Source of the DNA: Candidatus Binatia bacterium
GTDB lineage: Bacteria; Desulfobacterota; Binatia; UTPRO1
Reading direction: 5' to 3'
Assembly (NCBI GenBank): GCA_041488235.1
Contig: JBGPOW010000002.1
Span: forward strand, 1 to 62,896
Length of the DNA stretch: 62,896 nucleotides
The position numbers were made by a program, and so were the translations under genes. The notes beneath the pieces are model-generated. The model was not told the DNA's origin and did not search any database. It saw only the letters and a program-made list of their open reading frames with translations. This document shows, in pieces, positions 3,463 to 36,641 of this stretch. The first letter of the stretch is position 1, and each line of letters starts with the position of its first letter.

Positions 3463-4362
3463 TCACTCCAGCACGAGCGCGAACTGCCGCTGCAGCTCCG
3501 TGCGGTCGCGGAGGTGGAACCCGGCTGCTTCCGACTCGGCGAGGACGCGCGCCTCGGGAATCGCGTGTGCGCCCGCGACGTATTCCGTCGCGGCGCGGTC
3601 GACGATCACGAGCCGCCGGCCAGGGCGGAGCGCGCGGCGCACGGCCGCGAGCGTCGCCGCCGGGTTGGCGAGCTCGTGGAACGCGTCGACGAACAGCACG
3701 CCGTCGAGCGTGTCGGCCTCGAGGCGCGGATCGTTGGTGAGACCGCGCTGCACCTCGACGTTCCGCGCGTGCGCAAAGCGCGTGGTGAGCTGCGAGAGCG
3801 CATCGGAGTCGATGTCGACCGCGATCACGCGTCCGGCCGGACCGACGGCCGCGGCAAGGCGTTCGGTGAAGTAGCCGCCGCCGGCACCGACGTCGGCCAC
3901 GGTTCGGCCGGGCGCGACGTCGAGGAGCGCGAGCACGCGCGCCGGCTCCTGCCATGCGTCGCGGTCGGCTTCGAGGAGCCGGTAGAGATCCGGTGGCCGC
4001 GCGGCGACGCGGACCGCGACGTCGAGCGCGCCGCCTGCGCGCTCGACGTGCAGGGTCAGCATTGCGCCCGGTATCGTGCGGCGGACTGCGGCGCTCAGCT
4101 CGCGCGGTGCGCGGACCCTGCGGGCGCCGACGGCGCGCACGACGTCGCCGTTCGCGAGCCCGGCGGCGGCCGCGGGGCTCTCGGGGAGGACGCTTTCGAT
4201 GCGAACGGCGGTGCCATCGGCGACGTGATCCTCAGCGAGGGTCAGGCCGAGCCAGCCCTGCGCGGGGCTGCGTACAATCGCGCCGGTGACCGTAACGAGG
4301 ACGAGCAGGAGCGCCACGACCGGCGCGACGCTCGCCCGCACGCGCCGACGATCGCCGCTCAC
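3463..4362 (-). CDS. membrane-anchored PDZ domain + class I SAM-dependent methyltransferase fusion
   Basis: N-terminal TM helix (VAPVVALLLVLVTVTGAIV), a PDZ-like segment (SPAAAAGLANGDVVRAVG), and methyltransferase motif I (VADVGAGGGYF). GTG start overlaps the upstream gene stop (GTGA). Confidence 0.85.
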   Translation of the reverse strand: MSGDRRRVRASVAPVVALLLVLVTVTGAIVRSPAQGWLGLTLAEDHVADGTAVRIESVLPESPAAAAGLANGDVVRAVGARRVRAPRELSAAVRRTIPGAMLTLHVERAGGALDVAVRVAARPPDLYRLLEADRDAWQEPARVLALLDVAPGRTVADVGAGGGYFTERLAAAVGPAGRVIAVDIDSDALSQLTTRFAHARNVEVQRGLTNDPRLEADTLDGVLFVDAFHELANPAATLAAVRRALRPGRRLVIVDRAATEYVAGAHAIPEARVLAESEAAGFHLRDRTELQRQFALVLE

Positions 4363-5525
4363 GCGCGTGCGACGGCGCAGCAGTCCTCGAACCAGGCGAG
4401 GATCGCGGCGTTCTCGCTACGCGGATACGTGTGCGAGAGCTCGGGCAGCTCGCGGTAGTGGAGGTCGGCGCCGGCTTCGACGAGAACATCGCGCGTGAAG
4501 TGTGCGTACGCGACCGGGAAAAGAAAGTCGCGCGCGCCGTGGACGAGGTAGATCGGCGCGCCGCGCGCCCGCTCGAGGTTGCCGTTCGCGGCGTTCAGCG
4601 GATGAAAGACGCCGCAGAGCGGCGCCAGCGCGCGAAACCGTTCGCGGTGCGCGAGGCCGTAGAGGAGCGTGAAGGTACCGCCGTCCGACAGGCCGGTCAG
4701 AAGGACGCGATCGGTCGCGACGTGGAAGCGCGTCGCGAGCCAGTCGAGGATCTGCACCAGACCCTCGGCGTCTTCCTCGGCCCAGGTCGAATCGACGGCC
4801 GTCGGCGCGACGACGAGATGGCCGCGCGCCTTCGCCTCGCGCACCCATGTCCACAGGAAGTCGCGCCCGTTTCCCGAGCCGCCGTGCAGCGCGACGATCA
4901 GCGGCCACGCGCGCGCCGGGTCGTACTGCTCCGGGATGTACGCGGAGAACCCGCCGTGTCGGCCGCCCGCACCGACGCGCAGGAGCGGTGCGTGCGGCGG
5001 CGGGACGTCGCTCGCTGTTGGGGGCAGAACGCTCGCGGCGCGCCCCTCTGTGGTGGCGGTCATCGCGGCGGCGGACTCGGGCGGCGCATCTGCCGTTTCG
5101 GGACGAGGCTGGTCGGCGCCCCAGTACTCGCGCAACGGCGGCAGCAGCGCGCGAATGCCGTAGAAGTGCTCCTGCGCCTGCGCGTGGTGATGGAGCGCCG
5201 CGAGGATGCGAGGAATTCGCTCCGCGGCGGGCGCGCGCGGAAAGCTCGCGAAGAAGCCGACGCATTCGTCCGTATGCCGGAAGGCGGCGGCGAAGATCTC
5301 GTCGAAGCGGACGAGGTCGGCGGGGGCGGGCGCCGCGGCGAGCGCCGCGCGCGCGGCGGCCAGCGCGTCGCCGCAGCGTGCCTCGATTTCGGCGGCGAGC
5401 GCGGCGAAGCGCTCGGGGGCGAGCAGCTCGGCGACGCGCTCCATCGCGAGGAGCGCGTCGGCGGCGACGGCGCTCGCGGCGAGCACCGCGCGCAGATACG
5501 CGACTTCCTCCGGCGCGCGGCTCAC
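4359..5525 (-). CDS. alpha/beta-fold esterase (phospholipase/carboxylesterase or PHB-depolymerase-like) with N-terminal helical domain of unknown function
   Basis: The C-terminal half has LIVALHGGSGNG...LTGLSDGG (G-x-S-x-G nucleophile elbow)...YLVHGARD. The track ORF (to 6083) overlaps sixA on the other strand, so I prefer GTG 5525; ATG 5444 is an alternative. Confidence 0.7.
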   Translation of the reverse strand: MSRAPEEVAYLRAVLAASAVAADALLAMERVAELLAPERFAALAAEIEARCGDALAAARAALAAAPAPADLVRFDEIFAAAFRHTDECVGFFASFPRAPAAERIPRILAALHHHAQAQEHFYGIRALLPPLREYWGADQPRPETADAPPESAAAMTATTEGRAASVLPPTASDVPPPHAPLLRVGAGGRHGGFSAYIPEQYDPARAWPLIVALHGGSGNGRDFLWTWVREAKARGHLVVAPTAVDSTWAEEDAEGLVQILDWLATRFHVATDRVLLTGLSDGGTFTLLYGLAHRERFRALAPLCGVFHPLNAANGNLERARGAPIYLVHGARDFLFPVAYAHFTRDVLVEAGADLHYRELPELSHTYPRSENAAILAWFEDCCAVARA

Positions 5526-5738
5526 GGTCTCAGCCGACGAGTGGAGGCCGCCGGTACCCTCCGAGCGCGCGCTCGCGTCCGATGTGGGCGAGGTGCAGAT
5601 CCACCAGCTCCCTGGACGAAATCTCCCGGGCACGGAGGAAGCCGAGGAGGCGCGTCGCGGAGGCGAAGAGGAGGGCGTCGTCGAGCATGGGCGACTGTAC
5701 TTGCGCCGGCGAATCACGGTCAAATAGGAAGTGGGTCG

Positions 5739-6263
5739 ATGGCAACGGGCGGCCACTTGCTGATGCTGCTTCGCCACGGGATCGCCGAGGACACGGCGCC
5801 CGGCGGGTCCGACGCCGAGCGGCGGCTCACCGGCGAGGGCAAGCGCAAGCTGCGCGAAGTCGTCGCGGGGATGCGCGCCCTGAAGCTGCCGATCGACGTC
5901 ATCTTGACGAGCCCGCTCCGGCGCGCGCGGGAGACGGCGGAGATCGTCGCCGCCGAGCACGACATCGAGGAGACGACCGTCATCGCGACGCCGGCGCTCG
6001 CGCCCGCCGGCGCGCGCGACGCGCTCTTCGGCGCGCTCGGTTCGCACGCGCGCGCCGAGGGCATCGTGTTGGTCGGCCATCAACCGGACTTGGGCGAGCT
6101 CGCCTCGGTGCTGCTCGTCGGCACACCGGGGTTGGTGCCGCTGCCGTTCAAGAAAGCGGGGCTCGCCGCGATCAGCGTCGCGTCGCTACCGCCGCGCGCG
6201 GCCGGCACACTCGAGTTCTTTTTGACACCGGGGCAGCTGCGTCGCATCGGTCGCGGCGGCTGA
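5739..6263 (+). CDS. sixA: phosphohistidine phosphatase SixA (histidine phosphatase superfamily)
   Basis: LLRHGIAED (RHG catalytic motif) sits near the N-terminus and VLVGHQPDLGEL later, in about 174 aa. The ATG at 5739 is in frame with the long track ORF, whose upstream part is Arg-rich shadow sequence. Confidence 0.85.
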   Translation: MATGGHLLMLLRHGIAEDTAPGGSDAERRLTGEGKRKLREVVAGMRALKLPIDVILTSPLRRARETAEIVAAEHDIEETTVIATPALAPAGARDALFGALGSHARAEGIVLVGHQPDLGELASVLLVGTPGLVPLPFKKAGLAAISVASLPPRAAGTLEFFLTPGQLRRIGRGG

Positions 6264-6332
6264 TCCGTTCGCGATGCTCGAACCCGTCACTTTGCGCTTG
6301 TGGCGACGGCGCGCGCGGACTAGAGGAGCCGC

Positions 6333-7133
6333 ATGGCCGCCGCGCTCGGAACGATACAGGCAATCTGGCGGTACCCGGTGAAGTCGCTGCGCGGCGAACA
6401 GGTGCAAAGCGCCGAGGTGACGGCGAACGGCCTCGCCGGCGATCGCGCGTACGCGCTCCGCGATCGTGCGACCGGTCGCGTGATGAGCGGCAAACGCTGG
6501 GCACGTCTCTTCGAGTGCGGCGCGACCTATCCTGACGGGCCGAGCGCGCCGCCCGCGATCACATTGCCGGACGGCAGCCGCGTCGGGGTCGATGCGGCCG
6601 CCGGCGCGCTCTCCGCGTGGCTCGGCCACGACGTGGAACTCGTGCGCGCGATCCCCGAGCACACCGCGGAGTTCGAGATCGCGATTCAGACGGTGGAGGA
6701 CATCGAGGCGGGCGTCGATCAATCGGCCGTGGAGGCCGGCGATTATCCGTGTCCGCCCGGCACCTTCTTCGACGCTGCGCCGTTGCATGTCCTCACCGAC
6801 GCCACCTTGGCCGTGCTCGGCGCGGCATATCCCGAAGGACGATTCGACGTACGACGCTTCCGGCCGAACGTGTTCATCGCGACGGGTGGCGCCCCCGGTC
6901 TCGTCGAGGAGGGATGGAGCGGCCGCACGCTCGCACTCGGCGGCCAGGTGCGAGCGTCCGTCCTCATGGGGACGATCCGTTGCGTGATGACGACGCTGCC
7001 GCAGCAAGATTTGCCACGCGATCCCAAGATCCTGCGCACCGTCGCGCAGCGCGCCGGTGGGAACGTGGGTGTGTACGCAACGGTCGCCGCGGAAGGGATG
7101 CTGCGCGTCGGCGACGCGGTCGAATTGCGGTAG
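6333..7133 (+). CDS. MOSC domain-containing protein
   Basis: The N-terminal beta-barrel signature IWRYPVKSLRGE and ...GDRAY, together with a C-terminal MOSC-like region (RCVMTT conserved Cys), match the MOSC architecture. Confidence 0.85.
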   Translation: MAAALGTIQAIWRYPVKSLRGEQVQSAEVTANGLAGDRAYALRDRATGRVMSGKRWARLFECGATYPDGPSAPPAITLPDGSRVGVDAAAGALSAWLGHDVELVRAIPEHTAEFEIAIQTVEDIEAGVDQSAVEAGDYPCPPGTFFDAAPLHVLTDATLAVLGAAYPEGRFDVRRFRPNVFIATGGAPGLVEEGWSGRTLALGGQVRASVLMGTIRCVMTTLPQQDLPRDPKILRTVAQRAGGNVGVYATVAAEGMLRVGDAVELR

Positions 7134-7218
7134 TAGGAACGCCCGGAGTTCCGTAAAATGGCGCGGATCGGTTGCCGGCGGGGGTCGGCGACAGTTCCGG
7201 GCACATGAGGGTCACATC

Positions 7219-8346
7219 GTGACGAAACGCGCCGCGCTTCTCGTCGAGGACAACAGCTCGCACGTGGAGCTCATCAGCGACGAGCTGTCGCCGGTGCTCG
7301 ACGGCTGGAAGCTCGACGTCGTCTCCACCGTCGCCGAAGCGCGTCGGCGGATCGCCGCGCAGCCGTACGATCTCTTCGTGCTCGACTTCCGCCTGCCCGA
7401 CGGCGACGGCATTCAGCTCCTGCGGGAGATCCGCGGCGCGGGCATGACGACGCCGACCCTCTTCGTCACCACGGCGGCGTCGGCGAAGCTCGCCGTCGAG
7501 GCGATGAAGCTCGGCGCGGACGACTACGTCGTGAAGGAGGAAGGATACCTGTCCGTCCTTCCGTACCTCGTCCAGGAAGTTCTGGAGCGCCATCGCCTCG
7601 CGGCGGAGCGTCACGTGCTCGAGGAGCGCTTGCAGCGCGCCGAACGCGCCGCGACGCTCGGCTACCTGGCGTCCGGTCTCGCGCACCACATCAACAATCC
7701 GCTGGCGACGATCCGCACGTTCTTGCAGCTGCTGCCGTCGCGCCGCGACGACGAAGAGTTCTGCACGAAGTACCTGGAGCTGACCCTTGCCGAGAGCGAG
7801 CGCATCCGCGATCTCGTGAAGGACATCATGCGCGCCGCGACCGTCCCCGCCGAAGGCCGCGAGGTGCAGCACTTCAATGAGATCCTCGAACGTGCCGAGG
7901 ACGGCGTCGAAACCGAGCTACGCGCAAAACAAATCGTCTATCGGAAGGACGTGCCTGCCCCGACACCGGCCGTCCGCGTGCACGGCGAAGCCGCCACGTG
8001 TCTCTTTCTCAGCCTGCTGCAGAATGCCGTCAGATTTTCGCCCGAGGGCGGCACGATCGAGGTGCACGCGCACATCGACGACCAGGCGGGCCGCCTGATC
8101 GCCGTCGTCAAAGACGAAGGTCCAGGCATCCCGCCGGAAAATCGCGAGAAGATCTTCGAGCCGTTCTTCACCACCGCCGTCGACGGTCTCGGCATGGGTC
8201 TCTTCGTCGCATCGAGGATCGCGGATCTGCAGAACATCCATCTCTCCGTGGAAGCCGCCCAGCCGCACGGCGCGGTCTTTCGCGTCGAGTTGCCGCTCGC
8301 GGGCGTCTCCACCTCCACCTCGTCGACCCGGCCGCTCGGCGGCTGA
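7219..8346 (+). CDS. hybrid receiver-histidine kinase (REC + HisKA + HATPase_c), no sensor domain; paralog A
   Basis: REC: LLVEDN...[14 protein letters not shown]...KLGADDY. H-box: [15 protein letters not shown]1/F/G2 boxes: [33 protein letters not shown] 7219 is chosen because upstream ORF sequence overlaps the MOSC gene. Confidence 0.85.
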
Positions 8347-8440
8347 CGCGCACTCGCGCGCGTAAGGTTTCGATTACGCGCGGACAAATGCGCGCCGGCG
8401 CGTTGCCGCATTTGACGAGGCTGCTGCTGTGTCTTGCTCT

Positions 8441-8470
8441 GTGCTCCCAAAGTGGTCTATTTGGGAGCAC
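8441..8470 (+). promoter_or_regulatory. perfect 11-bp stem / 8-nt loop hairpin between hybrid kinase A and the KAS gene
   Basis: GTGCTCCCAAA-gtggtcta-TTTGGGAGCAC read directly from the sequence. There is no T-tract after it. Confidence 0.4.
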
Positions 8471-8495
8471 CCCTCGGAGAAAGCTCCCCCTCGGT

Positions 8496-9746
8496 TTGCG
8501 GAAGATTGTCGTTACCGGAGTCGGGTGCATCACCCCGCTGGGCATCGGCGCCGAGCCACTCTGGTCCGCGCTCCTCGCCGGAGAGTCCGGCATCGACCGG
8601 GTTTCCTCATTTGATCCGGTAGGCTGCGCCAGTCAGGTCGCGGGCGAGGTTCGGAACTTCGACCCGGAAGAGTTCCTCGCGCGCCGGACGGTTCAGGCCG
8701 TCGCGCGGTTCGTCCACTTCGGCGTCGCCGCGGCGCGCCTCGCGTGGGACGATGCGGGAACGCCCTCTCGGTCGATCGATCCCGACCGCATCGGCGTCTG
8801 TCTTGGCACCGCCGTCGGCGCGATCGATCGTACCGTCAGCGACGGGATCACGTTCGCAGAAAAAGGGTTGAGCCGCGTTCACCCGATGTTTCCGCTGCAG
8901 TACCCGGGCACGTTGTCGTCGGAGATCGCGATTGCGCTCGGACTCCACGGCCCGGCGTACGCGGTGTCCACCGCCTGCACTGCGAGCGCGGACGCGATCG
9001 GATTGGCGCTCGGTCAGGTCGCGAGCGGCGTCGTCGACGCCGTCGTGACCGGTGGGAGCGAGGCCGCGATCTTTCCGCTGCTGTACGCGTCGTTCGACCG
9101 CATCGGGGCGCTCTCGAGGCTGAACGATCCGCCGGCGCGTGCCTCGCGTCCGTTCTCACGGGAGCGGAGCGGATTCGTCATGTCCGAAGGTGCCGGCGTC
9201 ATAGTGTTGGAGGCGGAAGAGGTCGCGAAAGCGCGCGGTGCGCGCGTATACGCCGAGGTAGCGGGGTTCGGGGCGACGTGCGACGCGTATCACCACATGG
9301 CGCCGGAACCTGAAGGCGAGCACGGCGCGCGCGCAATCGTGGAGGCGCTTCGGCATGCGGGCCTCGCACCCGCCGATATCGACTACATCAACGCCCACGG
9401 CACCAGCACGCAGAAAAACGACGCGACGGAAACGCTCATCTTCAAGAAGGTCTTCGGGGAGCGCGCGTATCGCATCCCCATCAGCTCGTCGAAATCGATG
9501 CTGGGACATCTGATCGGCGCGTCCGCCGCGGTCGAGCTGATCATCTGTGCTCTCGCATTGCGCGACGGCGTCGTTCCTCCGACGATCAACCTCGACGAAC
9601 CCGATCCGGCATGTGACCTCGATTACGTCAGCGAAGGTGCGCGGCGTGTCGAGGCCCGCGCCGTCCTCTCGACGTCGTTCGGCTTCGGCTCACGCAACGC
9701 GGCGCTCGTGTTGAAAGCGGTGCCGTCGCAGGAGGGTTCTTCATGA
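8496..9746 (+). CDS. fabF: beta-ketoacyl-ACP synthase II (FabF-like KAS)
   Basis: Active-site context AVSTACTAS (Cys), HMAPEP (His) and NAHGTSTQ (His), with FGFGSRNAAL at the C-terminus. TTG 8496 gives (M)RKIVVTGVG and 416 aa, the canonical FabF length. ATG 8388 is an alternative. Confidence 0.85.
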   Translation: MRKIVVTGVGCITPLGIGAEPLWSALLAGESGIDRVSSFDPVGCASQVAGEVRNFDPEEFLARRTVQAVARFVHFGVAAARLAWDDAGTPSRSIDPDRIGVCLGTAVGAIDRTVSDGITFAEKGLSRVHPMFPLQYPGTLSSEIAIALGLHGPAYAVSTACTASADAIGLALGQVASGVVDAVVTGGSEAAIFPLLYASFDRIGALSRLNDPPARASRPFSRERSGFVMSEGAGVIVLEAEEVAKARGARVYAEVAGFGATCDAYHHMAPEPEGEHGARAIVEALRHAGLAPADIDYINAHGTSTQKNDATETLIFKKVFGERAYRIPISSSKSMLGHLIGASAAVELIICALALRDGVVPPTINLDEPDPACDLDYVSEGARRVEARAVLSTSFGFGSRNAALVLKAVPSQEGSS

Positions 9747-10042
9747 ACACGGACGTCGAGGCTCGGCTACTCGAGATCATCGCAACGGAGCTGCAGGTGC
9801 CCCTCGCCAACGTCGTCCGTGGCATCTCACTTCGCAAGAAACTCGGCATGGATTCCGTCGCGGCAGTGAACATCGTCTTTGCGGTGGAGGAGGAATTCGG
9901 AATCCGCGTTCCGGAAACGGAGCTCGAGCACGTCGATAGTGTCGAAGCGATTCTGGCGCTGCTCGACCGCCTCGCCTCCGACGCCGGCCAGAAATCCCAC
10001 CCGTTCGAAACGGAGATCAGTCGATCCGGCCGCCCCGGCTGA
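9743..10042 (+). CDS. acyl carrier protein (dedicated, non-housekeeping)
   Basis: 99 aa with an LGMDSV phosphopantetheine-attachment motif followed by the acidic helix VEEEFG. The ATG overlaps the fabF stop (ATGA). Confidence 0.85.
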   Translation: MNTDVEARLLEIIATELQVPLANVVRGISLRKKLGMDSVAAVNIVFAVEEEFGIRVPETELEHVDSVEAILALLDRLASDAGQKSHPFETEISRSGRPG

Positions 10043-10102
10043 CGCAGCAAATCGCCCATAGGCGGCATGCCGTGCCCTAATTAAGATGATTGGGGGGAGG
10101 TA

Positions 10103-10840
10103 GTGAGCCGCGTTGGAAGGCGGTACGGCGGTGTCCTAGGGCGGATCACAGGCGCTTTGCTGCAGCGCATTTCGCGTACGGGATCGTTGCGAGTCGCATC
10201 GGACGAGCCCGAACTGGACGGCCAGGGCTCCTGTGCCGTTCTCGCGGAACGGCTGTTGCGGGACGTCGACCGCGGCCACGTCATCGTACCGTTCTGGAGC
10301 ACGGATCAGTTGACGATTGCGTTGCTCGCGGCCGAGCGACACGGGCTCCGTCCGGCGCTTTCCCGATTCGAGATCGTAGCGGACGATTCGATTGGCGGTG
10401 AGATCATGTGGCGAATCGGCGAGAAGTTCGGGCTGCGGATGCGGCGGATCCACGTACGTGGAAATCCGTCGCGTTTGGAGGATCTCGCCGATTGGTTGCG
10501 CCGTCCGACGCCGTTCTTCATCGCGGTCGACGGCGGCAGCGTGTACGGCACCGTACCGACCGGCATCGTGCGCGTGGCGGCGCGGCTCGGCTCGACGATG
10601 TGGCCATTGGCGGTGCACGCGAGCCGAGGGGTGCGCATACCGGGCCTCATCGCCGATATCCCGCTTCCCCGTGCCACGATACGGGTCGGTGTGTCGCGTC
10701 CGCTCCACGTGACGCGCGCGGCGTCGATCGCCGAAGTGACGGCCGACGTGAAGCGACGCTTGGATTTCGCGTCGCGGCTTGCGCGCGATGAGTCGGCAGA
10801 TGCGAGCGCGGAATCGACCGACGGGGAGCCGAACGCGTGA
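10103..10840 (+). CDS. DUF374 / lysophospholipid-acyltransferase-superfamily protein
   Basis: The pattern PFWS...ADDSIGGEI...VRGN...IAVDGG...G parallels the DUF374 pattern FWH...S.DGE...RGS...DGPRGP. A strong SD (GGGGGGAGG) precedes GTG 10103. Confidence 0.6.
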   Translation: MSRVGRRYGGVLGRITGALLQRISRTGSLRVASDEPELDGQGSCAVLAERLLRDVDRGHVIVPFWSTDQLTIALLAAERHGLRPALSRFEIVADDSIGGEIMWRIGEKFGLRMRRIHVRGNPSRLEDLADWLRRPTPFFIAVDGGSVYGTVPTGIVRVAARLGSTMWPLAVHASRGVRIPGLIADIPLPRATIRVGVSRPLHVTRAASIAEVTADVKRRLDFASRLARDESADASAESTDGEPNA

Positions 10841-12192
10841 CCGAAATCGTCGACGTCAGCACGCGCCGGCAAGCGTTCATCGACGGCCTCTTTTTCCGCG
10901 TCGTCGCCTGCTCGTTCCTCGAGATCGTGATCTTCGCGACGGCCGTATCGTCGGGTCTGTCGCTGAGGTCGTTCACACCGCCGATGGTCGTCGTCGGGGC
11001 GGTCGGGTCGCTCGATCTACTGTATTGGTTTGCCGGCAAGCGACGCGGGTTTCCGCTCGGCGATTTCTACGTTCACTGGATCGTCGATCTCCTCGGCATC
11101 TCCTTCACGATCTACTCGCTGGGCGGCCTCGACGTGCCGTACGGCCCCTTCATCTATTCGATGATCGTGATCACGTCGGCGACCTTCATGTCGCGGACGG
11201 GATCGTACGTCATCGCCGGGGGTGCCGCCCTGTGCCTCATCGGCTTGGGTCTCGGTGTTCGGTCCGGAGTTCTCCCGCCGCCGACGGCGGTGTGGAGTCA
11301 TCACTACTCGTGGGCAGGCGAAATCGCCGTCCTGATCGGCGCCATCATCTTCTTCTTCATGAACGCGTATCTCGCCGGCACGTTGTCGGACCAACTCAAG
11401 ACCGCGAAAGGCGAGATCGAAGGGTACAACCGGCTCTTGGAGCAGCGTGTGCAGGAGCGTACCCGCGAGCTCGAAGCGCGCACACTCCAGCTACAAGAGC
11501 GCACGGACGAGCTGGAGGAGCTCGTGCACATCGTCACCCACGACCTGCAAAACGTCGCGGTCGCGAGCACGGAGACCGCTCGCAAGCTCGTCGAGATCGA
11601 CGGCGCGCAATTGTCGAAGCGCGGGCAACGCTACGCCGATCGGCTGATCCGAGATTGTCGCTTGATGACGACGATGCTGCGGAACCTTCTCGAGGTGGTC
11701 ACCCAAACCGAGGTCGCCGCGCCGAGCGAGCTCGTCGACGTCAATGCCGTGGTGCGCGACGCCGTCGGCAGGGCACACACGGCGATCGAGTCGAAGGGCA
11801 TCGACGTCGTCATCGGAGACCTGCCGCCGGTCCGTGCCGAGGAGCAGAAGATCAACCACGTGTTCGATAATCTCGTGACGAACGCCTGCAAATACGTCGG
11901 AGACAAAGAGCAGCCTCGGATCGAGATTTCGGGCGAAATGCAGAATGGGACGATCGACTACGTCGTCCGCGACAACGGCATAGGCATAACGGAGAACCAG
12001 ATTGGACGCATTTTTCAGCTGTACCACCGCGCTCCGGAACAGAACGTCGCCGGGGTCGTTCAGCAAGGGTACGGCATCGGACTCGCCGTCGTGAAGCGCA
12101 TCGTGCAGCGCTACGGCGGACGTATCTGGGTCGAGTCGGTGGCGGGCGAGGGGTCGAGCTTCCATCTCAGCTTCCCGCGCGGAGACAGGTGA
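10837..12192 (+). CDS. polytopic membrane sensor histidine kinase
   Basis: About 6 predicted TM helices in the first 190 aa, then a coiled coil, the H-box VTHDLQNV, the N-box FDNLVTNACKY, G1 DNGIGI and G2 GYGIGL. The start overlaps the upstream stop by 4 nt. Confidence 0.85.
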   Translation: MTEIVDVSTRRQAFIDGLFFRVVACSFLEIVIFATAVSSGLSLRSFTPPMVVVGAVGSLDLLYWFAGKRRGFPLGDFYVHWIVDLLGISFTIYSLGGLDVPYGPFIYSMIVITSATFMSRTGSYVIAGGAALCLIGLGLGVRSGVLPPPTAVWSHHYSWAGEIAVLIGAIIFFFMNAYLAGTLSDQLKTAKGEIEGYNRLLEQRVQERTRELEARTLQLQERTDELEELVHIVTHDLQNVAVASTETARKLVEIDGAQLSKRGQRYADRLIRDCRLMTTMLRNLLEVVTQTEVAAPSELVDVNAVVRDAVGRAHTAIESKGIDVVIGDLPPVRAEEQKINHVFDNLVTNACKYVGDKEQPRIEISGEMQNGTIDYVVRDNGIGITENQIGRIFQLYHRAPEQNVAGVVQQGYGIGLAVVKRIVQRYGGRIWVESVAGEGSSFHLSFPRGDR

Positions 12193-12195
12193 GCC

Positions 12196-13311
12196 GTGGG
12201 CAAAGTCGCATTGTTGGTCGAGGACAATCAGTCGCACGTCGAGCTCATGAGCGACGAGTTGGAGACGGCGCTCGAAGACTGGTCGCTCGAGGTAGCCGGC
12301 AATCTCGCCGAGGCGAGGCGGCGCATCGCGGCGCAGCAGTACGATCTCTTCGTATTCGATTTCAAGCTGCCTGACGGAGACGGCATCGAGTTGCTGCGCG
12401 AAGTCCGCGGATCCGGGATCGATACGCCCGCGATCTTCGTCACGACCGCGTCGTCGGCGAAGCTCGCGGTCGAGGCGATGAAGCTCGGCGCCGACGACTA
12501 CCTCGTGAAGGAAGAGGGCTATCTGACCGCGTTGCCCTACGTCGTCCGCGAGGTGCTGAATCGGCGGTGCCTGGCGGACGAGCGGCGCACGCTGGAAGAT
12601 CGGCTACAGCGCGCCGAGCGCGCAGCGACGTTGGGCTACTTGGCATCCGGGCTGGCGCATCACATCAACAATCCTCTGGCGACGATCAGAACGTTCTTGC
12701 AGTTGTTGCCGGATCACATCGAAGATCCCGAGTTCCGCAGCAAATATCTGGCGATGGCTCTCGCCGAGAGCGAGCGCATCCGCGACCTCGTCAAGGACAT
12801 CATGCGGACGACGAGCGTACCGGCCGAGGCGCGGGAGATCCGGGAGCTCGACGACATTCTCGCCGCCGCAGACAGTGCCATCGCCGGCGAGTTGAAGAAG
12901 AAGGGTATCGCGTTGCAGAAGAGGATACCTTCCTCGGTGCCGTTAGTGCGCGTCCACGGTGAAGCGGCGACGTGCCTGATCGTCGCGCTGCTGCAAAACG
13001 CCGTGCGTTTCTCGCCGGAGGGCAGCACGGTCGAATTGGACGTGCGTGTGGACGCGCCGGCGGAACGCGTCTCGGTCGTGGTGCGTGACCAGGGTCCCGG
13101 CATCTCCTCCGAGAATCGAGACAAGATTTTCGAGCCGTTTTTCACGACCGCCGTGGACGGGCTCGGGATGGGGCTGTTCGTCGCGTCGCGGATCGCCGAT
13201 CTGCAAAACATCGACCTCTCATTCGAGAATTGCGAGCCGCACGGCGCCGCGTTCACGATCAGCATACCAATCGCGAACGGCTCGGTAGGGAAGACGATCG
13301 CGGCCGACTAA
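12196..13311 (+). CDS. hybrid receiver-histidine kinase (REC + HisKA + HATPase_c), no sensor domain; paralog B
   Basis: Collinear with 7219-8346 and shares long identical runs ([65 protein letters not shown]). Starts 3 nt after the membrane kinase stop. Confidence 0.9.
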   Translation: MGKVALLVEDNQSHVELMSDELETALEDWSLEVAGNLAEARRRIAAQQYDLFVFDFKLPDGDGIELLREVRGSGIDTPAIFVTTASSAKLAVEAMKLGADDYLVKEEGYLTALPYVVREVLNRRCLADERRTLEDRLQRAERAATLGYLASGLAHHINNPLATIRTFLQLLPDHIEDPEFRSKYLAMALAESERIRDLVKDIMRTTSVPAEAREIRELDDILAAADSAIAGELKKKGIALQKRIPSSVPLVRVHGEAATCLIVALLQNAVRFSPEGSTVELDVRVDAPAERVSVVVRDQGPGISSENRDKIFEPFFTTAVDGLGMGLFVASRIADLQNIDLSFENCEPHGAAFTISIPIANGSVGKTIAAD

Positions 13312-15656
13312 GCGGTTCGGCGCATGCGCCGGTCGACGAGACGCGACGTCTCGCCGAACAGGAACCGTGGCTGCACCCAGACGAGCAGCGCAGGCAACAA
13401 CGTGATCGCGGCGACGCTCGAGACGGTCATCGCCAGGGCGATCATCATGCTGAGCTCCCGGTGGTAGACGAAGCCGGACGTGCACAACACGAGGTATCCG
13501 CCGGAAATGGCTGACGAGACGTACACGATTGCCTTGCCGGAAGTCCGCAGCGTGCTTGCCAGTGCGAGCTCTCGCGTCCCACTGACCGCGAGCTCCTCGC
13601 GGAACCGAAATACGAAGTAGATGGCGTAATCGGCGCCGATTCCGACCGCCATCGCCGCGAGCGGTGCCGTCATGATGTCGAGGGGCACGCCGACGAGCCC
13701 CATCGCGCCGAAATTCACCAGCACCGCCATCGCCAGCGGTGCCGCGATGAGCAGTCCCGCGACTGGCGATCGCAGAACGAGGCCCGAGACGAGCATGATG
13801 ATCCCTGCGACCTGCAGCATGTTGAAGATTTTCCCATGCACCATCGTTTCGGCGAGTGCGGCGTTCGAGGCGATGATCCCCGAATACTGCAGCCGATAGC
13901 CGGGCGGAAACGTCTTCGCGACGTGCTCGCGGACACGGCGAATGAGGTACTCGCCGTGTTCCGTCGAATCGCGGTGGAGGAACGCGCGCACCACCGCGCT
14001 GCGATGATCCGGGTCGATCTGGCTGTTCAGGTCTTCCGGTCCGCCCGACATCGAGTAGAGGAACAAGTACTGACTCACGAGCTCGGGAGTGTCGGGAATC
14101 GCCGGTGCCGTCCGGCCATCGTGCAGCGCCCGGTCCATTTGGCCGAGGAAGTCGACGATCGAGATCGTCTTGCCCACGGCGGGATCGGTCTCGACGAAGC
14201 GTTGCAGATCGGCGACGGCCGCCAGCGCCGCCGGATCATGCAAGGCGTTCGGCGCGGGGCCCTCGACGATGAAGATCAGAGTGTTGGTGCCGGCAAACGC
14301 AGCGTTCAGCGCGTCGTCGGCCACATGCACCGGGTGCTGCGGTCCGAACTGCCGCTTGAAGCTGGTATCGACGCGCAGACGCGTCGCTGCGGCCAAGGCG
14401 GCGACGGCGACGAGCGCCGTGATTGCGATGACGGTTCCCGGCCGGCTCGCCGTGACGGACGCGACGCGACCGAGGAGCTTTTCGAGGATGCGACCGCTCC
14501 GCGCCTCGCGATCGATCTCGGCCGCGCGCGGAGGGCGCAGCTGCACGCGTACTGCAGGGATCAACGTCAGCTCGATCAGCAGCGCCGCGACGATGCCCGC
14601 GCCCGTCAGCATTCCGAAGTTCCGAATCGTCGCCGTCGCGAAGACCGTCAGCGAAAAGAACGAGAGCGCCGCGATCGCGCCGGCAATCATCATCACCGGT
14701 CCGACACGCCGCAGCGCCACGCGAACGGCGACCGGCGTATCGTGGTAACGGTCGTACTCCTCGTAGTACCGCTTCAGGACCTGGACGGCGTGGCCGGCAG
14801 CGACGGCGAGGATGAGAATCGGCGTCGTCGTGTTGAAGGGATCGAGCCGAATCCCCAGAAGTCCCATCAGCCCCAAGCTCCACACGACCGCGAGCACGGC
14901 GGTGAGGAGCGGGAGTAGCATTCCCTGCACGGTCCGGAACGCCTCGTAGTGAATGAGGGCGACGACCAGCACCGCCAACGGGAAAAGCAGAACCGTACGC
15001 TCGGTCACGTGCGCCAACGAGGCAAGGACGGCAACCGGGCCGCCGAAGTGCGCCGTGAACGTGCCGTCACTCTCCTCGGCGATGATCGTCTCGAGCCGTT
15101 GCTCGATTTCCGGGTACCCGGTGAGCTCCGGCGTCAAGCGGAAATTGGCGATGATCGCGGTCGCGCTGGAATCGGCGGCGACGACGGTGCCGACGTACAA
15201 CGGCGTGGCGAAAGCTCTCCTCCGCACCTCAGCGATCTCCGCGCTCGTCGTCGGCGTCCCTTCCATGATCGGTCGCACGAGCAAGGTCCCATCGGCGCCT
15301 TCGATCGCCTTTGCGAGCGGGGACGCGAGGCTCAGATACGTGGACCGGATCAGTCCGGGCGTCGCGGCGACCCGTTTCGTGATCCGCTGCAGCTTGGCGA
15401 GGAACGGCGCGGTGAATACGTTGCCGTCGTTCGGGAACAAGCCGATGACGACGAGGTTCTTCTCGCCGAATTGATTCTCGAGAGTGTGGAGCGCGCGAAT
15501 GTACGAATGGTCCTGTGGAAGATTCGCGTCGGGATCGATCTCCACGCGCAGAGTCCGCAGTTGCGATGCCCAAAACGCCGTCACTACGGCGAGGGCGAGA
15601 ATGACGAGACGAGGATGGCGGCAGACGGCGTCGACGAAACGATCGAAAACCCGCAC
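13308..15656 (-). CDS. MMPL / RND-superfamily lipid-type exporter
   Basis: 782 aa. Two blocks of about 6 TM helices, each preceded by a large soluble loop, which is the typical MMPL/HpnN-like topology. Convergent 4-nt overlap with kinase paralog B. Confidence 0.85.
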   Translation of the reverse strand: MRVFDRFVDAVCRHPRLVILALAVVTAFWASQLRTLRVEIDPDANLPQDHSYIRALHTLENQFGEKNLVVIGLFPNDGNVFTAPFLAKLQRITKRVAATPGLIRSTYLSLASPLAKAIEGADGTLLVRPIMEGTPTTSAEIAEVRRRAFATPLYVGTVVAADSSATAIIANFRLTPELTGYPEIEQRLETIIAEESDGTFTAHFGGPVAVLASLAHVTERTVLLFPLAVLVVALIHYEAFRTVQGMLLPLLTAVLAVVWSLGLMGLLGIRLDPFNTTTPILILAVAAGHAVQVLKRYYEEYDRYHDTPVAVRVALRRVGPVMMIAGAIAALSFFSLTVFATATIRNFGMLTGAGIVAALLIELTLIPAVRVQLRPPRAAEIDREARSGRILEKLLGRVASVTASRPGTVIAITALVAVAALAAATRLRVDTSFKRQFGPQHPVHVADDALNAAFAGTNTLIFIVEGPAPNALHDPAALAAVADLQRFVETDPAVGKTISIVDFLGQMDRALHDGRTAPAIPDTPELVSQYLFLYSMSGGPEDLNSQIDPDHRSAVVRAFLHRDSTEHGEYLIRRVREHVAKTFPPGYRLQYSGIIASNAALAETMVHGKIFNMLQVAGIIMLVSGLVLRSPVAGLLIAAPLAMAVLVNFGAMGLVGVPLDIMTAPLAAMAVGIGADYAIYFVFRFREELAVSGTRELALASTLRTSGKAIVYVSSAISGGYLVLCTSGFVYHRELSMMIALAMTVSSVAAITLLPALLVWVQPRFLFGETSRLVDRRMRRTA

Positions 15657-15747
15657 GCGGGTCGTTATGCGGGCGTCCTGCCGCCGCGGTCAAGGTAATT
15701 CCGTGGTCGCAATGGTGCCCGGAGAGTGGTAGTCGCACCGCGGGAGA

Positions 15748-16197
15748 ATGCGGATGTCGCTGATCGCGTGCGTGCTGTTCTGCCTGCTCGGTGTGGCGGT
15801 GGTCACGGCGGCCGGCTTCCCCACCGACGTCGCCACCGCGCTGCGCTCGTCGAAGCAGATCTACGTCGCGACTCGGCGCGCCGACGGCTCGCAGAGCAAG
15901 GTCGTGCCGGTGTGGTTCATGTACGACGGCGACGCGATCTACTTCGCGACCGGACCGGAGAGCTACAAAGCGCGGCGGATCCGCCACGGCAGCCCGCTCT
16001 TCGTCTGGGTGGGGAGTGCCAGCGGACCGCATTTCGTCGGCAAAGCGACGCTGGAGAAGGACCCCGAGCTCGCGTCGCGGATGGCGCCCGTCTACTCGAA
16101 GAAGTACTGGATCGCGTGGCTCGGACTCTTTCGTCCGGACCCGGAGCGGGTGCGAGCCGGGAAGACCGTGATCGTGAAGATCGTGCCCGGCGAGTGA
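15748..16197 (+). CDS. pyridoxamine-5'-phosphate-oxidase-like split-barrel protein with N-terminal signal/anchor (putative)
   Basis: 149 aa. Hydrophobic N-terminus (LIACVLFCLLGVAVVTAAG) followed by a VATRRADGS...VPVWF...IYF pattern reminiscent of PPOX-class barrels. The assignment is tentative. Confidence 0.5.
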   Translation: MRMSLIACVLFCLLGVAVVTAAGFPTDVATALRSSKQIYVATRRADGSQSKVVPVWFMYDGDAIYFATGPESYKARRIRHGSPLFVWVGSASGPHFVGKATLEKDPELASRMAPVYSKKYWIAWLGLFRPDPERVRAGKTVIVKIVPGE

Positions 16198-16303
16198 ATC
16201 GTCCCGCGGGACGAGCGCGCATCGCAGCGTCCCTGTGAGTGCGATTCCGCTGCGGCGCCGACCGAAACTGGCGGGCGCGGGCGCGACCCGATAAAAACGG
16301 GTC

Positions 16304-18418
16304 GTGCTCACGATCGCCAACCTCAGCAAGGCGTACCGCGGCCAGCGCATCCTCGACGCGGTGAACTGGTTCGCGCCGGATCGGACGCGCATCGGCTTGA
16401 CCGGTATGAACGGCGCCGGCAAATCGACCTTGCTGAAGCTGATCGCCAGCGAGATCGAGCCCGACGGCGGCGAGATCAACCTCCCGAAAGGGACGACCGT
16501 CGGGTACCTGCCGCAGGAGGTCATCGGCGTCTCGGGCCGGACCGTTTTCGAGGAGGCGATCGGCGCGTTTGCGGATCTGCATGCGCTCGAAGCGGAGTGC
16601 CGGAGCCTGGAAGAGGCGCTCGCCGCCGCGCCGACCGAAGGCCCCGAGCACGATCGCCTCATGGCGGCGTACCACGACGTGCGCGCGCGCTTCGACGTCG
16701 AGGTGCGCTACGACCTCGAGGCGGAGACCGAGCGCGTGCTGGCCGGACTCGGCTTTCGCACCGACGACTTCACGCGCGACCTCGGGACGTTCAGCGGCGG
16801 CTGGCAGATGCGGGTCGCGCTCGCGAAGCTGCTGCTGCGCCGGCCGCGCGTGCTCCTCCTCGACGAGCCGACGAATCATCTCGACCTCGAAGCCCGCACC
16901 TGGCTCGAGGAGTTCCTCGGCGCGAGCGAGTCGCTGGTGATCCTCGTCGCGCACGATCGCTACTTTCTCGACGTCTGCGTCCAACGGATCACCGAGGTCT
17001 CGCGCGGCCGGCTCACCGATTACGACTGCAACTACACGGCGTACCTCGCGCAGCGCGAAGAGCGTCGCGCGCAAGAGGCGGATGCGTACGCCGCCCAGCA
17101 GGAGGAGATCGCGCGCATCGAAGCGTTCGTGCGGCGCTTCCGCTACCAGGCGTCGAAGGCGGCGCTGGTGCAGAGTCGCGTGAAGCAGCTGGAGAAGATC
17201 GAGCGCCTGGCGCCGCCCGATGGGCACGAGCGGCGGGTCAAGATCCGGCTTCCCGATCCGCCGCGCAGTGGACGCATCGTCGTCGGGCTCGAGCATGCGA
17301 CGAAACGCTACGGCGATCTGACCGTCTACGACGGCGTCGACCTCGCGATCGAGCGCGGCCGCAAGGTCGCGCTCGTCGGCCCGAACGGCGCCGGCAAATC
17401 GACGCTGCTCAAACTGCTCGTCGGCGTCGAGCCGCTCACCAGCGGGCGGCGCGTCTGCGGCCACAACGTACGGCTCGCGTACTTCGCGCAGGATCAATCG
17501 ACGGCGCTCGACGGCGAGAAGACGGTGCTGGAAGAGCTCACCACCGTCGCGCCGACGGAGCTCATGCCGCGCGTCCGCGATCTCCTCGGCGCGTTTCTCT
17601 TCAGCGGCGACGCGGTGGAGAAGCCGGTGCGGGTGCTCTCGGGCGGCGAGCGCAATCGATTGGCGCTGGCGAAGCTGCTCGTCGAGCCGGCGAACTGCCT
17701 CCTCCTCGACGAGCCGACGAACCACCTCGATCTGACGGCCAAGGAGGTGTTGCTGGAAGCGCTCCTCGAGTACGCGGGCACCGTCGTCCTCGTCGCCCAC
17801 GATCGCTACATCCTCGACCGGCTGCCGGCGGAGGTGATCGAGGTCGGTCACGGGGCGGCCGTGCGCTATCTCGGAAACTACGAGGACTACCTGGCGAAGA
17901 AGGCGGCCCTCGAGGGCGCTGCGACGAGCGCCGGCGCCGGCGCGAGAATCACGGCCGGTGCGAGCGCGCTGCGGGCGAACGCTATGAGCGCGAGCGCCAC
18001 CGGCGCGAGCGGCACCGCGTCGAGGGATGGCGGCGGCGCCCGACGCGCGAACATCGGCGGCGTGAGCGCTCGGCGCCTCGACGCCGGCGCGACGTCGAGC
18101 GCCGGGAACGGCGCGGCCGGCAATCGCGGCGACGGCGCGCCCGCGACCGACGGCCGCGCGCAGCGCGACGCGGCACGGCTCGAGCGCGATGCCGCGCGGC
18201 GGCAGGCGCGCGCCGAGGAGAAGCGGCGGCGGGAGGCCGAGGGCCTCGAGTCGACGATCGCGGCGAAGGAGGCGGAGCTCGCCGAGCTGACGCAGGTGAT
18301 GAACGACCCCGACTTCTACCAAACGCACCCCGAGCCGCAGCGCCTCTTCTCGTCGTACGCGCGGCTGAAGCGCGAGGTCGAAGTGCTCTACGAGAAGCTC
18401 GAGCGCGTCACCGGCTGA
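16304..18418 (+). CDS. ABC-F family ATPase (tandem ABC domains, no TM domain)
   Basis: Two Walker A motifs (GMNGAGKST, GPNGAGKST), two ABC signatures (FSGGWQMR, LSGGERNR), two Walker B motifs (LLLDEPTNHLD twice), and a C-terminal coiled coil. GTG start. Confidence 0.9.
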   Translation: MLTIANLSKAYRGQRILDAVNWFAPDRTRIGLTGMNGAGKSTLLKLIASEIEPDGGEINLPKGTTVGYLPQEVIGVSGRTVFEEAIGAFADLHALEAECRSLEEALAAAPTEGPEHDRLMAAYHDVRARFDVEVRYDLEAETERVLAGLGFRTDDFTRDLGTFSGGWQMRVALAKLLLRRPRVLLLDEPTNHLDLEARTWLEEFLGASESLVILVAHDRYFLDVCVQRITEVSRGRLTDYDCNYTAYLAQREERRAQEADAYAAQQEEIARIEAFVRRFRYQASKAALVQSRVKQLEKIERLAPPDGHERRVKIRLPDPPRSGRIVVGLEHATKRYGDLTVYDGVDLAIERGRKVALVGPNGAGKSTLLKLLVGVEPLTSGRRVCGHNVRLAYFAQDQSTALDGEKTVLEELTTVAPTELMPRVRDLLGAFLFSGDAVEKPVRVLSGGERNRLALAKLLVEPANCLLLDEPTNHLDLTAKEVLLEALLEYAGTVVLVAHDRYILDRLPAEVIEVGHGAAVRYLGNYEDYLAKKAALEGAATSAGAGARITAGASALRANAMSASATGASGTASRDGGGARRANIGGVSARRLDAGATSSAGNGAAGNRGDGAPATDGRAQRDAARLERDAARRQARAEEKRRREAEGLESTIAAKEAELAELTQVMNDPDFYQTHPEPQRLFSSYARLKREVEVLYEKLERVTG

Positions 18419-20202: not shown

Positions 20203-20945
20203 CAGCGCGTCGTCTCGCCGGCGGCGCCCCGTGCCGCGGCGAGTGCTGCGCCGCTCGCACCGTGACGCAGGATCTCCTCGATCAGATCCGCGAGGCGCCG
20301 CGCCGCGACCGCGGGCGCGATGCCGCCGCGGTGGATGTTGGAGACGACCGTTCGATCCGGCTCGGCCGAGCGTTGCGACGGACGGTAGATCACGTACGCC
20401 GAGAGGCTCTCGGCGGTGACGAGCCCCGGGCGCTCGCCGACGATGAAGCAGAACACCTCCGGCTTCAGCACGGCGCCGATCTCGTCCTGCACGCGCACGC
20501 GTCCGTTGCGAACGAAGAGCGGCGTGCCGAGCCGCCGACCGCGGCGGCGCAGCTCGCGCGTGAGCGCCGTCAACACCGCGGCGCCGTTCGTCACGATCGC
20601 CGCCGACGAGAGGCCGTCGGTGAGCGCGAGCTGCACCTCGGGCGCTCGCCGGCAGCGGCGCAGGCGCGCGAGCGCGCTGCGGCCGAGCTCGCGTCCGAGC
20701 GCGGGCACGCGTACGTAGTCCGGCCGCGACTCGGCGCGTGTCGCGATCTCCACCAGGCCGAGCCGCCGGACGAGCGACACCGGCACCTCGCTGGTGACGG
20801 CGTCGCGAGCACGCGCGTGATCCGCGAGCAGAGCGAGCCACGTTTTGGTACGCAGCCGCGGGCCGGCGCGGCCGATCGCGAGCCGCGCCGGCGTTGCGGC
20901 GAGCAGGCGTGCGAGCGACGGCGGTGCGGCAGCGGACGTCGTCAT
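20202..20945 (-). CDS. eutC: ethanolamine ammonia-lyase small subunit
   Basis: 247 aa immediately after eutB with an ATGA overlap. Conserved EutC-like stretches: ARLAIGRAGPR, VQLALTDGLSS, IVGERPGL. Confidence 0.85.
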   Translation of the reverse strand: MTTSAAAPPSLARLLAATPARLAIGRAGPRLRTKTWLALLADHARARDAVTSEVPVSLVRRLGLVEIATRAESRPDYVRVPALGRELGRSALARLRRCRRAPEVQLALTDGLSSAAIVTNGAAVLTALTRELRRRGRRLGTPLFVRNGRVRVQDEIGAVLKPEVFCFIVGERPGLVTAESLSAYVIYRPSQRSAEPDRTVVSNIHRGGIAPAVAARRLADLIEEILRHGASGAALAAARGAAGETTR

Positions 20946-22369: not shown

Positions 22370-22397
22370 GCGGACATGGTGAGCTGTGGTTAGCGGA

Positions 22398-26566: not shown

Positions 26567-26604
26567 GGCTGTCCTCCTCGTCCAAGCGGGGTGTTACGGG
26601 GACG

Positions 26605-35793: not shown

Positions 35794-35822
35794 TTGAAGG
35801 GCCGATAGGGGGCGGATAGAAT
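35794..35822 (+). promoter_or_regulatory. candidate sigma70-type promoter for the kinase-activator operon
   Basis: TTGAAG-N17-TAGAAT in the 231-bp gap upstream of ATG 35908. Confidence 0.35.
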
Positions 35823-36639: not shown

Positions 36640-36641
36640 GA

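Follow-up and report, generated by a model that had tools for sequence, protein, structure and literature searches.

The stretch of DNA analysed here, hereafter the window, comprises 62,896 nucleotides of contig JBGPOW010000002.1 from assembly GCA_041488235.1 of an uncultured soil bacterium, a member of Candidatus Binatia. Between positions 7219 and 15656 it carries a module of fatty-acyl enzymes and sensor kinases, encoded on the forward strand. The leftmost gene, at 7219–8346, specifies a hybrid of receiver (REC), HisKA and HATPase domains, the ‘upstream’ copy, which we call paralogue B. Beyond a spacer (8347–8495) follow a FabF-type beta-ketoacyl-acyl carrier protein (ACP) synthase II (KAS II; ~8496–9746), a dedicated ACP (9743–10042), a 245-residue acyltransferase-fold protein resembling DUF374/LpxJ, which we designate LPLATx (10103–10840), a membrane histidine kinase in which a six-helix sensor precedes a DHp/HATPase core (10837–12192), and a further REC-HisKA-HATPase hybrid, paralogue A (12196–13311). 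Domains were assigned with Pfam for the hybrids, Pfam and NCBIfam for the synthase, the Pfam PP-binding model for the ACP, and Pfam HATPase_c together with hydropathy for the membrane kinase; LPLATx was assigned from its fold and by profile–profile comparison. These searches confirmed the gene set and positions given in a preliminary description of this DNA, with the exception of its DUF374 label. The junctions were likewise as described there: an ATGA overlap between the KAS and ACP genes, a GTGA overlap between the acyltransferase open reading frame (ORF) and the kinase gene, a 3-nucleotide gap between the kinase and the second hybrid, and a 4-nucleotide convergent overlap with a gene for an MMPL transporter. 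No DNA-binding response regulator is encoded within 7219–15656, again in agreement with that description. The reading frames in use are backed by the GC content of third codon positions, and the module occurs only once in the window.

We collected 40 loci and annotated them with the window proteins. Two of these were duplicates and one was a false positive, which left 37 non-redundant loci drawn from two or more lineages; a match in L007 (Acidimicrobiales), 56 residues at 34% identity, was at chance level and was ignored. The order KAS II, ACP, acyltransferase-like gene, six-transmembrane-helix (6TM) kinase was kept in the 37 loci wherever the contig reached. The ACP gene lay directly upstream of the acyltransferase-like gene in all 35 observable cases and KAS lay upstream in 29 of 30, the single miss being an artefact of overlapping ORFs. 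The 6TM kinase lay downstream in 26 of 27; in the one exception, a second KAS gene comes first and the contig stops there. We count both misses as artefacts, of ORF calling or of the contig end. In each of the 21 loci whose downstream sequence runs to 3 kb or more, a REC-kinase hybrid was present. In the second lineage, the module is found among unrelated flanks (PriA, Def, Fmt, Mrp/ParA ATPase), where the hybrid is transcribed divergently next to the Mrp/ParA-type ATPase gene and a second kinase follows the first. Acyltransferases of subclade d, one of those defined below, are also encoded within the order KAS, ACP, acyltransferase, kinase. Conservation of gene order in other genomes, which the preliminary description had offered as a check, is therefore seen in every observable locus, those with unrelated flanks included.

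Two further neighbours proved less constant. The convergent MMPL/HAE3-like RND transporter (13308–15656, reverse strand) scored 161.6 bits with Pfam MMPL, against a cut-off of 20.5, and 241 bits with the HAE3 model TIGR00921, against a cut-off of 351.9. It accompanies the module in 12 of the 16 loci that extend far enough, in Binatia-type loci only, and is missing from L008 and from lineage 2. A SixA-type phosphohistidine phosphatase (5745–6263, forward strand; TIGR00249, 84.4 bits with a cut-off of 74.5) lies upstream in most Binatia-type loci and is absent from L010 and the lineage-2 loci. Because neither is conserved outside Binatia-type synteny, we ruled out both as core parts; the conserved core is the REC-kinase, KAS II, ACP, acyltransferase-like protein and 6TM kinase. 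We conclude that this five-gene module is conserved across lineages. As one possible reading, the preliminary description had suggested a phosphorelay coupled to the synthesis and export of a lipid or signal. This is borne out in part: the kinase genes and the KAS/ACP/acyltransferase genes are conserved together as a single unit, in which the acyltransferase co-varies with the sensor as set out below, but MMPL and SixA do not belong to its core. The chemosensory or Rcs-like relay that had been envisaged as an alternative gained no support, as no Che or Rcs genes are present.

The most informative feature of the module, which was absent from the preliminary description, is a hypervariable cassette. 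Type-a loci, defined by acyltransferases of subclade a, share the Binatia-type synteny of the window. In comparison with the window they are stable in KAS (63–72% identity), kinase core (71–79%), hybrids (65–77%) and MMPL (65–67%), whereas identity collapses from 49–57% to 24–34% in the acyltransferase and from 60–67% to 35–42% in the first 200 residues of the kinase. When pairwise identity matrices were compiled for 19 loci, block structure was confined to the acyltransferase and the sensor domain, with a weaker version in the ACP. Identity across types was 19–29% for the acyltransferase and 31–40% for the sensor, whereas KAS, the kinase core and the hybrids retained 61–79%. The acyltransferase and sensor matrices were strongly correlated in a Mantel test (r = 0.88–0.89, p = 1e-4), and remained so when we controlled for the kinase core (r = 0.84–0.85).

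Close pairs of loci that differ in type make the pattern plain. L009 (type 1) and L017 (type a) are 93% identical in the REC-kinase hybrid, 74% in the kinase core and 72% in KAS; the figures are 40% for the ACP, 32% for the sensor domain and 25% for the acyltransferase. At the DNA level, a sliding-window comparison of the two gave 75–90% identity in the flanks and 32–61% between the 3′ end of the ACP gene and kinase codon ~187. The window is itself of type 1, and its closest flanks belong to a type-a locus, L030: nucleotide identity between them is 83–93% across SixA, a MOSC-domain gene and hybrid B, is ~67% from KAS on, and falls below 40% in 9950–10916. Per-residue profiles place the edges of the cassette at ACP residue ~51 and at kinase residue ~195, where the sixth transmembrane helix ends. 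The ratio of cross-type to within-type identity is 0.26–0.7 inside these edges and ~1.0 outside. The cassette is ~1.5 kb long and sharply bounded; in the window it occupies ~9893–11422 and comprises ACP residues from 51 on, the acyltransferase and the transmembrane sensor of the kinase.

Cassette type does not follow genome relatedness, since each of the two arrangements of paralogue B (described below) includes both types. An interpretation of the types as two deep clades was ruled out on this ground, together with the difference in type within the close pairs window/L030 and L009/L017. The GC content of the window is 64–66% over 8–16 kb, compared with 69–73% in the flanks, and this dip at 8000–16000 agrees with the mosaic history of recombination that the comparison with L030 shows. 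The same pattern of co-diversification recurs in lineage 2, where L012 (subclade b) and L038 (subclade c) share 70% identity in Mrp, 65% in the REC-kinase and 63% in KAS, with 33% in the ACP, 27% in the acyltransferase and 34% in the sensor. We conclude that one cassette, made up of the C-terminal half of the ACP, the acyltransferase and the membrane sensor, diversifies as a unit, in which KAS, the kinase core and the hybrids take no part.

LPLATx gave no match to any Pfam or NCBIfam model, PF04028 (DUF374) included, even at E ≤ 10. Clustered at 90% identity, its homologues make up a compact family of ~66 clusters. All of them are from metagenomes or metagenome-assembled genomes, and the genomes that carry them are labelled Candidatus Binatia or ‘Deltaproteobacteria bacterium’. 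An AlphaFold2 model of the protein, built with 29 sequences, reached a pLDDT of 88.8, and its top 12 PDB matches in Foldseek all had the GPAT, PatA, PlsC or LpxM fold (probability 0.98–1.00, TM-score 0.41–0.52). In an exhaustive HMMER search of 1.84 billion representatives, the matches fell into three tiers: the family itself; ~70 clusters at 50% identity, with E-values of 1e-27 to 1e-10, which comprise four further subclades, a to d, that have no Pfam match; and true DUF374 proteins at 1e-5 to 1e-3. PF04028 was matched by only 6 of the 39 relatives scanned, the canonical ones with WHG..DGPRGP..WDR. Comparison with DUF374 proteins in hhalign gave a probability of 99.6% and an E-value of 9.5e-25.

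DUF374 is the LpxJ family of acyl-ACP-dependent lipid A late acyltransferases, and in Rickettsia LpxJ the residues W60, H61 (the proposed base), D86, D132, W172 and D173 are essential (PMC6148475). W60 and D132 are kept in LPLATx as W65 and D143. H61, in contrast, is replaced by Ser66, D86 by G98 (with D94/D95 nearby) and W172 by I183, and D173 falls in a gap. Among the acyltransferase-like proteins D94, G99, R124, D143, P168 and P187 are invariant in 32 of 32 and Y148 is found in 31 of 32, and no His is invariant across the five subclades. With H61 replaced, W172-D173 lost and no invariant His, we regard these proteins as a His-less sister family of DUF374/LpxJ rather than as members of it; strict LpxJ membership was ruled out by the lack of a Pfam match and by the replaced catalytic His. 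The label ‘DUF374/LPLAT-type’ of the preliminary description is therefore upheld at the superfamily level, by the fold and by hhalign, but not in the strict sense. Within types, the ratio of non-synonymous to synonymous substitution rates (dN/dS) of the acyltransferase is 0.15–0.51, and acyltransferase and ACP have non-synonymous rates two to four times those of KAS or the kinase core. Pseudogenization of these fast-evolving genes was ruled out by dN/dS below 1 and by the invariant residues. Within-type dN/dS below 1, the invariant residues of the acyltransferase, the Ser of the ACP and the conserved polar residues of the sensor together make the proteins look functional.

KAS narrowly passes the NCBIfam fabF model TIGR03150 (499.2 bits, cut-off 493.75), and its best solved relatives are FabF enzymes (2e-113). 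The Cys-His-Lys-His active site is intact, with the motifs ACTAS, AHGTS, SKSM and GHL in all copies, and the ratio of cross-type to within-type identity is ~1. Translation probably starts at TTG ~8496 rather than at the in-frame ATG 8388, because 8347–8495 is poorly conserved against L030 (58% nucleotide identity) and is probably non-coding; a start at ATG 8388 would give KAS a hydrophobic, signal-peptide-like N-terminus. This spacer is where nucleotide identity to L030 first drops, from the high level to its left to 67–74% on its right, and it probably holds the promoter of the operon. No sigma-70 consensus was seen in 8347–8495, promoter and terminator consensus counts were at the level of shuffled controls, and no Rfam element or riboswitch was matched in 5000–17000 at E ≤ 0.1. 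In some type-a loci (L021, L022, L023, L025, L026, L030 and L032) a second intact KAS II gene lies between the acyltransferase-like gene and the kinase gene. Its product is ~50–54% identical to the first KAS, copies from different loci being 56–76% identical to one another, and its presence hints at a longer or different acyl product.

The ACP falls below every NCBIfam AcpP cut-off (40.2 bits, compared with 70.45 for TIGR00517). Residues D37, S38, A41, N43 and F46 of its motif DSVAAxNIxF, the phosphopantetheine Ser included, are invariant in 30 of 30 sequences. From residue 51 on, the ratio of cross-type to within-type identity is ~0.5. Helix II, which we take to be the KAS-docking face, is conserved, and the C-terminal half of the protein varies along with the acyltransferase. 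The ACP evolves fast, with 33–76% identity among loci and a within-type dN/dS of 0.09–0.32.

The membrane kinase begins with six hydrophobic helices joined by very short loops (residues 1 to ~195); hydropathy gave five segments above threshold, and the sixth helix, at residues ~101–118, was read by eye. Six helices with minimal loops imply sensing within the membrane. Against the Pfam model 6TM_PilS (PF25323; cut-off 27) the window protein scored 16.1 bits, over model positions 18–186 of 189, and the orthologues of L012 and L017 scored 32.4 and 30.5. The H-box, read from the sequence, is THDLQN. The polar residues H80, W81, D84, D99, H155 and H156 are invariant in the sensors of all cassette types and the remainder is type-specific; the invariant set may form a fixed site for the head group, next to a variable surface that recognizes the chain. 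The second kinase that follows the first in lineage 2 (L012 8699–10099; L038 6689–8020) has ~443–466 residues and an HATPase domain, and the N-terminal part of the L012 protein matches the 6TM sensor domain of the window.

Hybrids A and B align without gaps over 365 residues at 68% identity, much as the preliminary description had estimated. Their nucleotide identity is 71%, with dS 0.92, dN 0.245 and dN/dS 0.27; the duplication is therefore old, with both copies under purifying selection, as had been proposed. Read from the sequence, both retain the Asp and Lys of the receiver and every kinase box. Paralogue A always lies directly after the membrane kinase and forms the clade ‘dn1’ in a neighbour-joining tree. 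In the same tree, paralogue B clusters with the upstream copies of L003, L030, L022 and L025, in a group that is sister to the ‘second downstream’ copies. Paralogue B precedes KAS in the window and in those four loci, follows paralogue A in L009, L017, L020, L024 and others, and is absent from L002 and L004. The bracketing of the module by duplicate hybrids, to which the preliminary description had drawn attention, is therefore not conserved. In L010, near-identical sister REC-kinases at 6792–8153 and 12069–13190 reflect an independent, recent duplication apart from the old A/B paralogy. In L001/L005, the REC-kinase after the membrane kinase is split at 11880–13098 into two overlapping ORFs in different frames (REC; HisKA-HATPase), a split that reflects either pseudogenization by frameshift or an indel in the assembly. 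Among solved structures, the closest relative of the hybrids is LvrB (8vc9; full length, 4e-24). Their scores with the NCBIfam LvrB model NF047466 are 116–117 bits, so far below the cut-off of 500 that we regard LvrB as an analogue and not an orthologue.

We propose that the genes constitute a self-contained module for both the synthesis and the sensing of an acylated lipid, and that the cassette types correspond to signal dialects; we put the probability of this at about 0.45. KAS and ACP would build a private acyl, possibly 3-oxoacyl, thioester, from which the acyltransferase-fold protein would move the acyl group to an acceptor. The matching six-helix sensor would recognize the hydrophobic product within the membrane, and the membrane kinase would then phosphorylate the receiver of hybrid A, and of B where present. 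The kinase halves of the hybrids would in turn pass the signal to a regulator encoded elsewhere, and the MMPL pump, where present, may export the signal. The different cassette types would be ‘dialects’ of a cell-to-cell or kin-recognition signal. That the module represents an undescribed class of lipid-based dialect (pherotype) or kin-recognition system, present in Binatia and at least one further lineage and with a cassette exchanged like agr/comQXP alleles, is a more tentative suggestion, which we consider somewhat doubtful.

Several observations weigh against this proposal. Transmembrane domains generally evolve faster than kinase cores, and selection on a neighbouring gene could carry along the 5′ part of the kinase gene. 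Acyl transfer is only a putative activity of a protein that has no conserved His and carries Ser66 in place of H61. The module contains no ketoreductase, dehydratase or enoyl reductase. The context of fab genes was judged from the locus neighbourhoods. Finally, all of the sequences are metagenome contigs and metagenome-assembled genomes.

It is possible, but in our view unlikely, that the module instead serves envelope-lipid remodelling under feedback. The LpxJ-like protein would then put a special acyl chain, made by KAS and ACP, on lipid A or another outer-membrane lipid, MMPL would move the lipid outward, and the kinase would monitor the membrane of its own cell; cassette diversity would reflect selection on the surface lipid by phage, predators or antimicrobials, with the sensor tracking the cell’s own lipid. 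A dedicated ACP with KAS II, and in some loci with a second KAS, recalls AcpXL with FabF1XL/F2XL, and the frequency of the MMPL neighbour fits this scheme. So does the homology to DUF374/LpxJ, given the role of LpxJ as an acyl-ACP-dependent lipid A late acyltransferase (PMC6148475). However, LPLATx lacks the residues critical to LpxJ (H61, W172 and D173); lpx, waa and other lipopolysaccharide genes are absent from the module in every annotated locus; and MMPL is missing in lineage 2 and L008. Moreover, we know of no lipid A acyltransferase that shows tight, domain-limited co-variation with a sensor.

We think it improbable that the module is a protein–protein sensor complex, in which the His-less protein would be non-enzymatic, would bind acyl-ACP and would dock on the six-helix domain as PilA does on PilS, such that the kinase reads the status of acyl-ACP or lipid synthesis. 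Co-variation would then reflect two interfaces, one between the ACP and the acyltransferase-fold protein and the other between that protein and the sensor. The lack of a conserved His, with Ser66 at the catalytic position, is as such a complex would have it, as are the GTGA overlap, which couples translation of the acyltransferase-fold protein to that of the kinase, the co-variation of the C-terminal half of the ACP with the acyltransferase-fold protein, and the PilS-like transmembrane domain, the PilS family being one that senses a membrane protein partner. Against it, D94, R124, D143 and Y148 are kept over five types at ~25% identity, as is typical of an active site; deeply divergent types shuffled among close relatives are not expected of an internal status sensor; and a private KAS would be an expensive source of ligand for one. 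We give very little credence to a chance placement of ordinary housekeeping fabF/acpP genes beside unrelated two-component genes. The narrow pass of KAS over the fabF cut-off and its closeness to solved housekeeping FabF enzymes would agree with that, but the gene order is conserved in every observable locus, in lineages with different flanks, and the ACP, at 40 bits compared with 70 for AcpP, evolves fast and lies partly inside the cassette. In addition, no fabD, fabG, fabH or fabZ gene adjoins the module. On context, ACP scores and ACP evolutionary rate we therefore ruled out a role in housekeeping fatty-acid synthesis, which the preliminary description had put forward as one of the cases against its own reading.

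To our knowledge, loci in which a signal maker and its receptor sensor diversify together have been described only for peptide pheromones in Firmicutes. A polymorphic signature of this kind around fatty-acyl enzymes would, if our proposal is correct, mean lipid-based dialects, a new signal chemistry and a new class of signal, here in a Gram-negative-type, uncultured and globally distributed phylum. It would also provide the first biological context for the His-less sister clade of DUF374/LpxJ, which lies outside any Pfam or NCBIfam model, and the pairing of acyltransferase and sensor would supply natural ligand–receptor sets for the question of how six-helix intramembrane sensors recognize hydrophobic ligands. 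With five genes, the module is small enough to suit heterologous reconstitution, and the question is therefore directly testable despite the uncultured hosts. We found no description of the module in a search that did not extend to papers on the analogous systems, and a genome survey of the Binatota makes no mention of kinases, ACP, MMPL or quorum sensing (PMC8262859).

The rest of the window provides context. A MOSC-domain protein (6333–7133, forward strand; Pfam MOSC and MOSC_N), encoded in some related loci only, precedes paralogue B, and a PDZ-methyltransferase fusion (3463–4362, reverse) lies inside the block that is syntenic with the module. Matches from PADLOC were generic, at the level of REC and HATPase, and we rejected a known anti-phage defence system. 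A 496-residue protein with a PlsC-type Acyltransferase domain (PF01553; 26605–28095, reverse) adjoins a PDZ-domain protein (25913–26593, reverse). Positions 35800–61600 hold a large exopolysaccharide-type locus, with an AAA_22 ATPase, Poly_export/SLBB, Wzy_C, GT4 and GT2 glycosyltransferases, Bac_transf, two type I phosphodiesterases, a polysaccharide deacetylase and two asparagine synthases. Within this locus, a sigma-54 receiver/AAA+ regulator (36591–38063) carries the one receiver domain that the window has outside the module, and no kinase domain was detected beside it. Ordinary metabolic genes include those for EutB, the large subunit of ethanolamine ammonia-lyase (20942–22432, reverse), and for a molybdopterin oxidoreductase (1–2355, forward) that is cut by the window edge.

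Several known systems share parts of this arrangement. LPLATx resembles LpxJ/DUF374 proteins in its homologous fold and core blocks, in W65/D143, in a length of ~230–250 residues and, presumably, in an acyl-ACP donor, but lipid A genes are never adjacent to its gene, which is always flanked by those for a private ACP and a sensor kinase. The rhizobial cluster acpXL-fabZXL-fabF2XL-fabF1XL-adhA2XL-lpxXL specifies the very-long-chain fatty acid of lipid A. There, as here, the genes for a dedicated ACP and for one or two dedicated KAS II enzymes accompany that of the acyltransferase to which their product goes. The module differs in that it has no dedicated dehydratase or dehydrogenase, its acyltransferase is DUF374-like and not of the LpxL family, and it is joined to a two-component unit and contains a hypervariable cassette. 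Leptospira LvrB, with REC, HisKA and HATPase domains and no DNA-binding domain, has the architecture of our hybrids, although these are not its orthologues and the LvrA/LvrB system is unlinked to lipid-synthesis genes. PilS is a 6TM sensor kinase of type IV pilin expression; it shares the six helices with minimal loops, and the 6TM_PilS cut-off is exceeded in L012 and L017, but not by the window kinase, which has no adjacent pil genes or PilR-type regulator.

The systems closest to our proposal are those in which a signal synthase is encoded next to its sensor. In Ralstonia phcBSRQ and in the CqsA-CqsS and LqsA-LqsS pairs of Vibrio and Legionella, hydrophobic signals derived from fatty acids are read by multi-pass membrane kinases encoded next to the synthase. 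PhcR, a receiver fused to a kinase-like domain, resembles our hybrids in architecture. The synthases, however, are unrelated: that of phc is a methyltransferase, and Cqs/Lqs rely on a PLP-dependent acyl-CoA transferase. In Staphylococcus agrBDCA and Bacillus comQXPA, a hypervariable block covers the signal-maker gene and the N-terminal membrane sensor of the kinase, the kinase core and the partners downstream of it are conserved, and types are shuffled among relatives. Here, too, the maker genes lie directly upstream of a polytopic kinase, the hypervariable block spans maker and sensor, the core and downstream partners are conserved and the types are shuffled. In contrast to agr and comQXP, the relay would run via REC-kinase hybrids and not via a DNA-binding regulator, and the block has no gene for a peptide precursor, the spacers of ~60 nucleotides in the window and ~90 nucleotides in L017 being too short. 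Since the role of maker falls instead to KAS II, ACP and the acyltransferase-fold protein, a signal, if one is made, would be lipid in nature.

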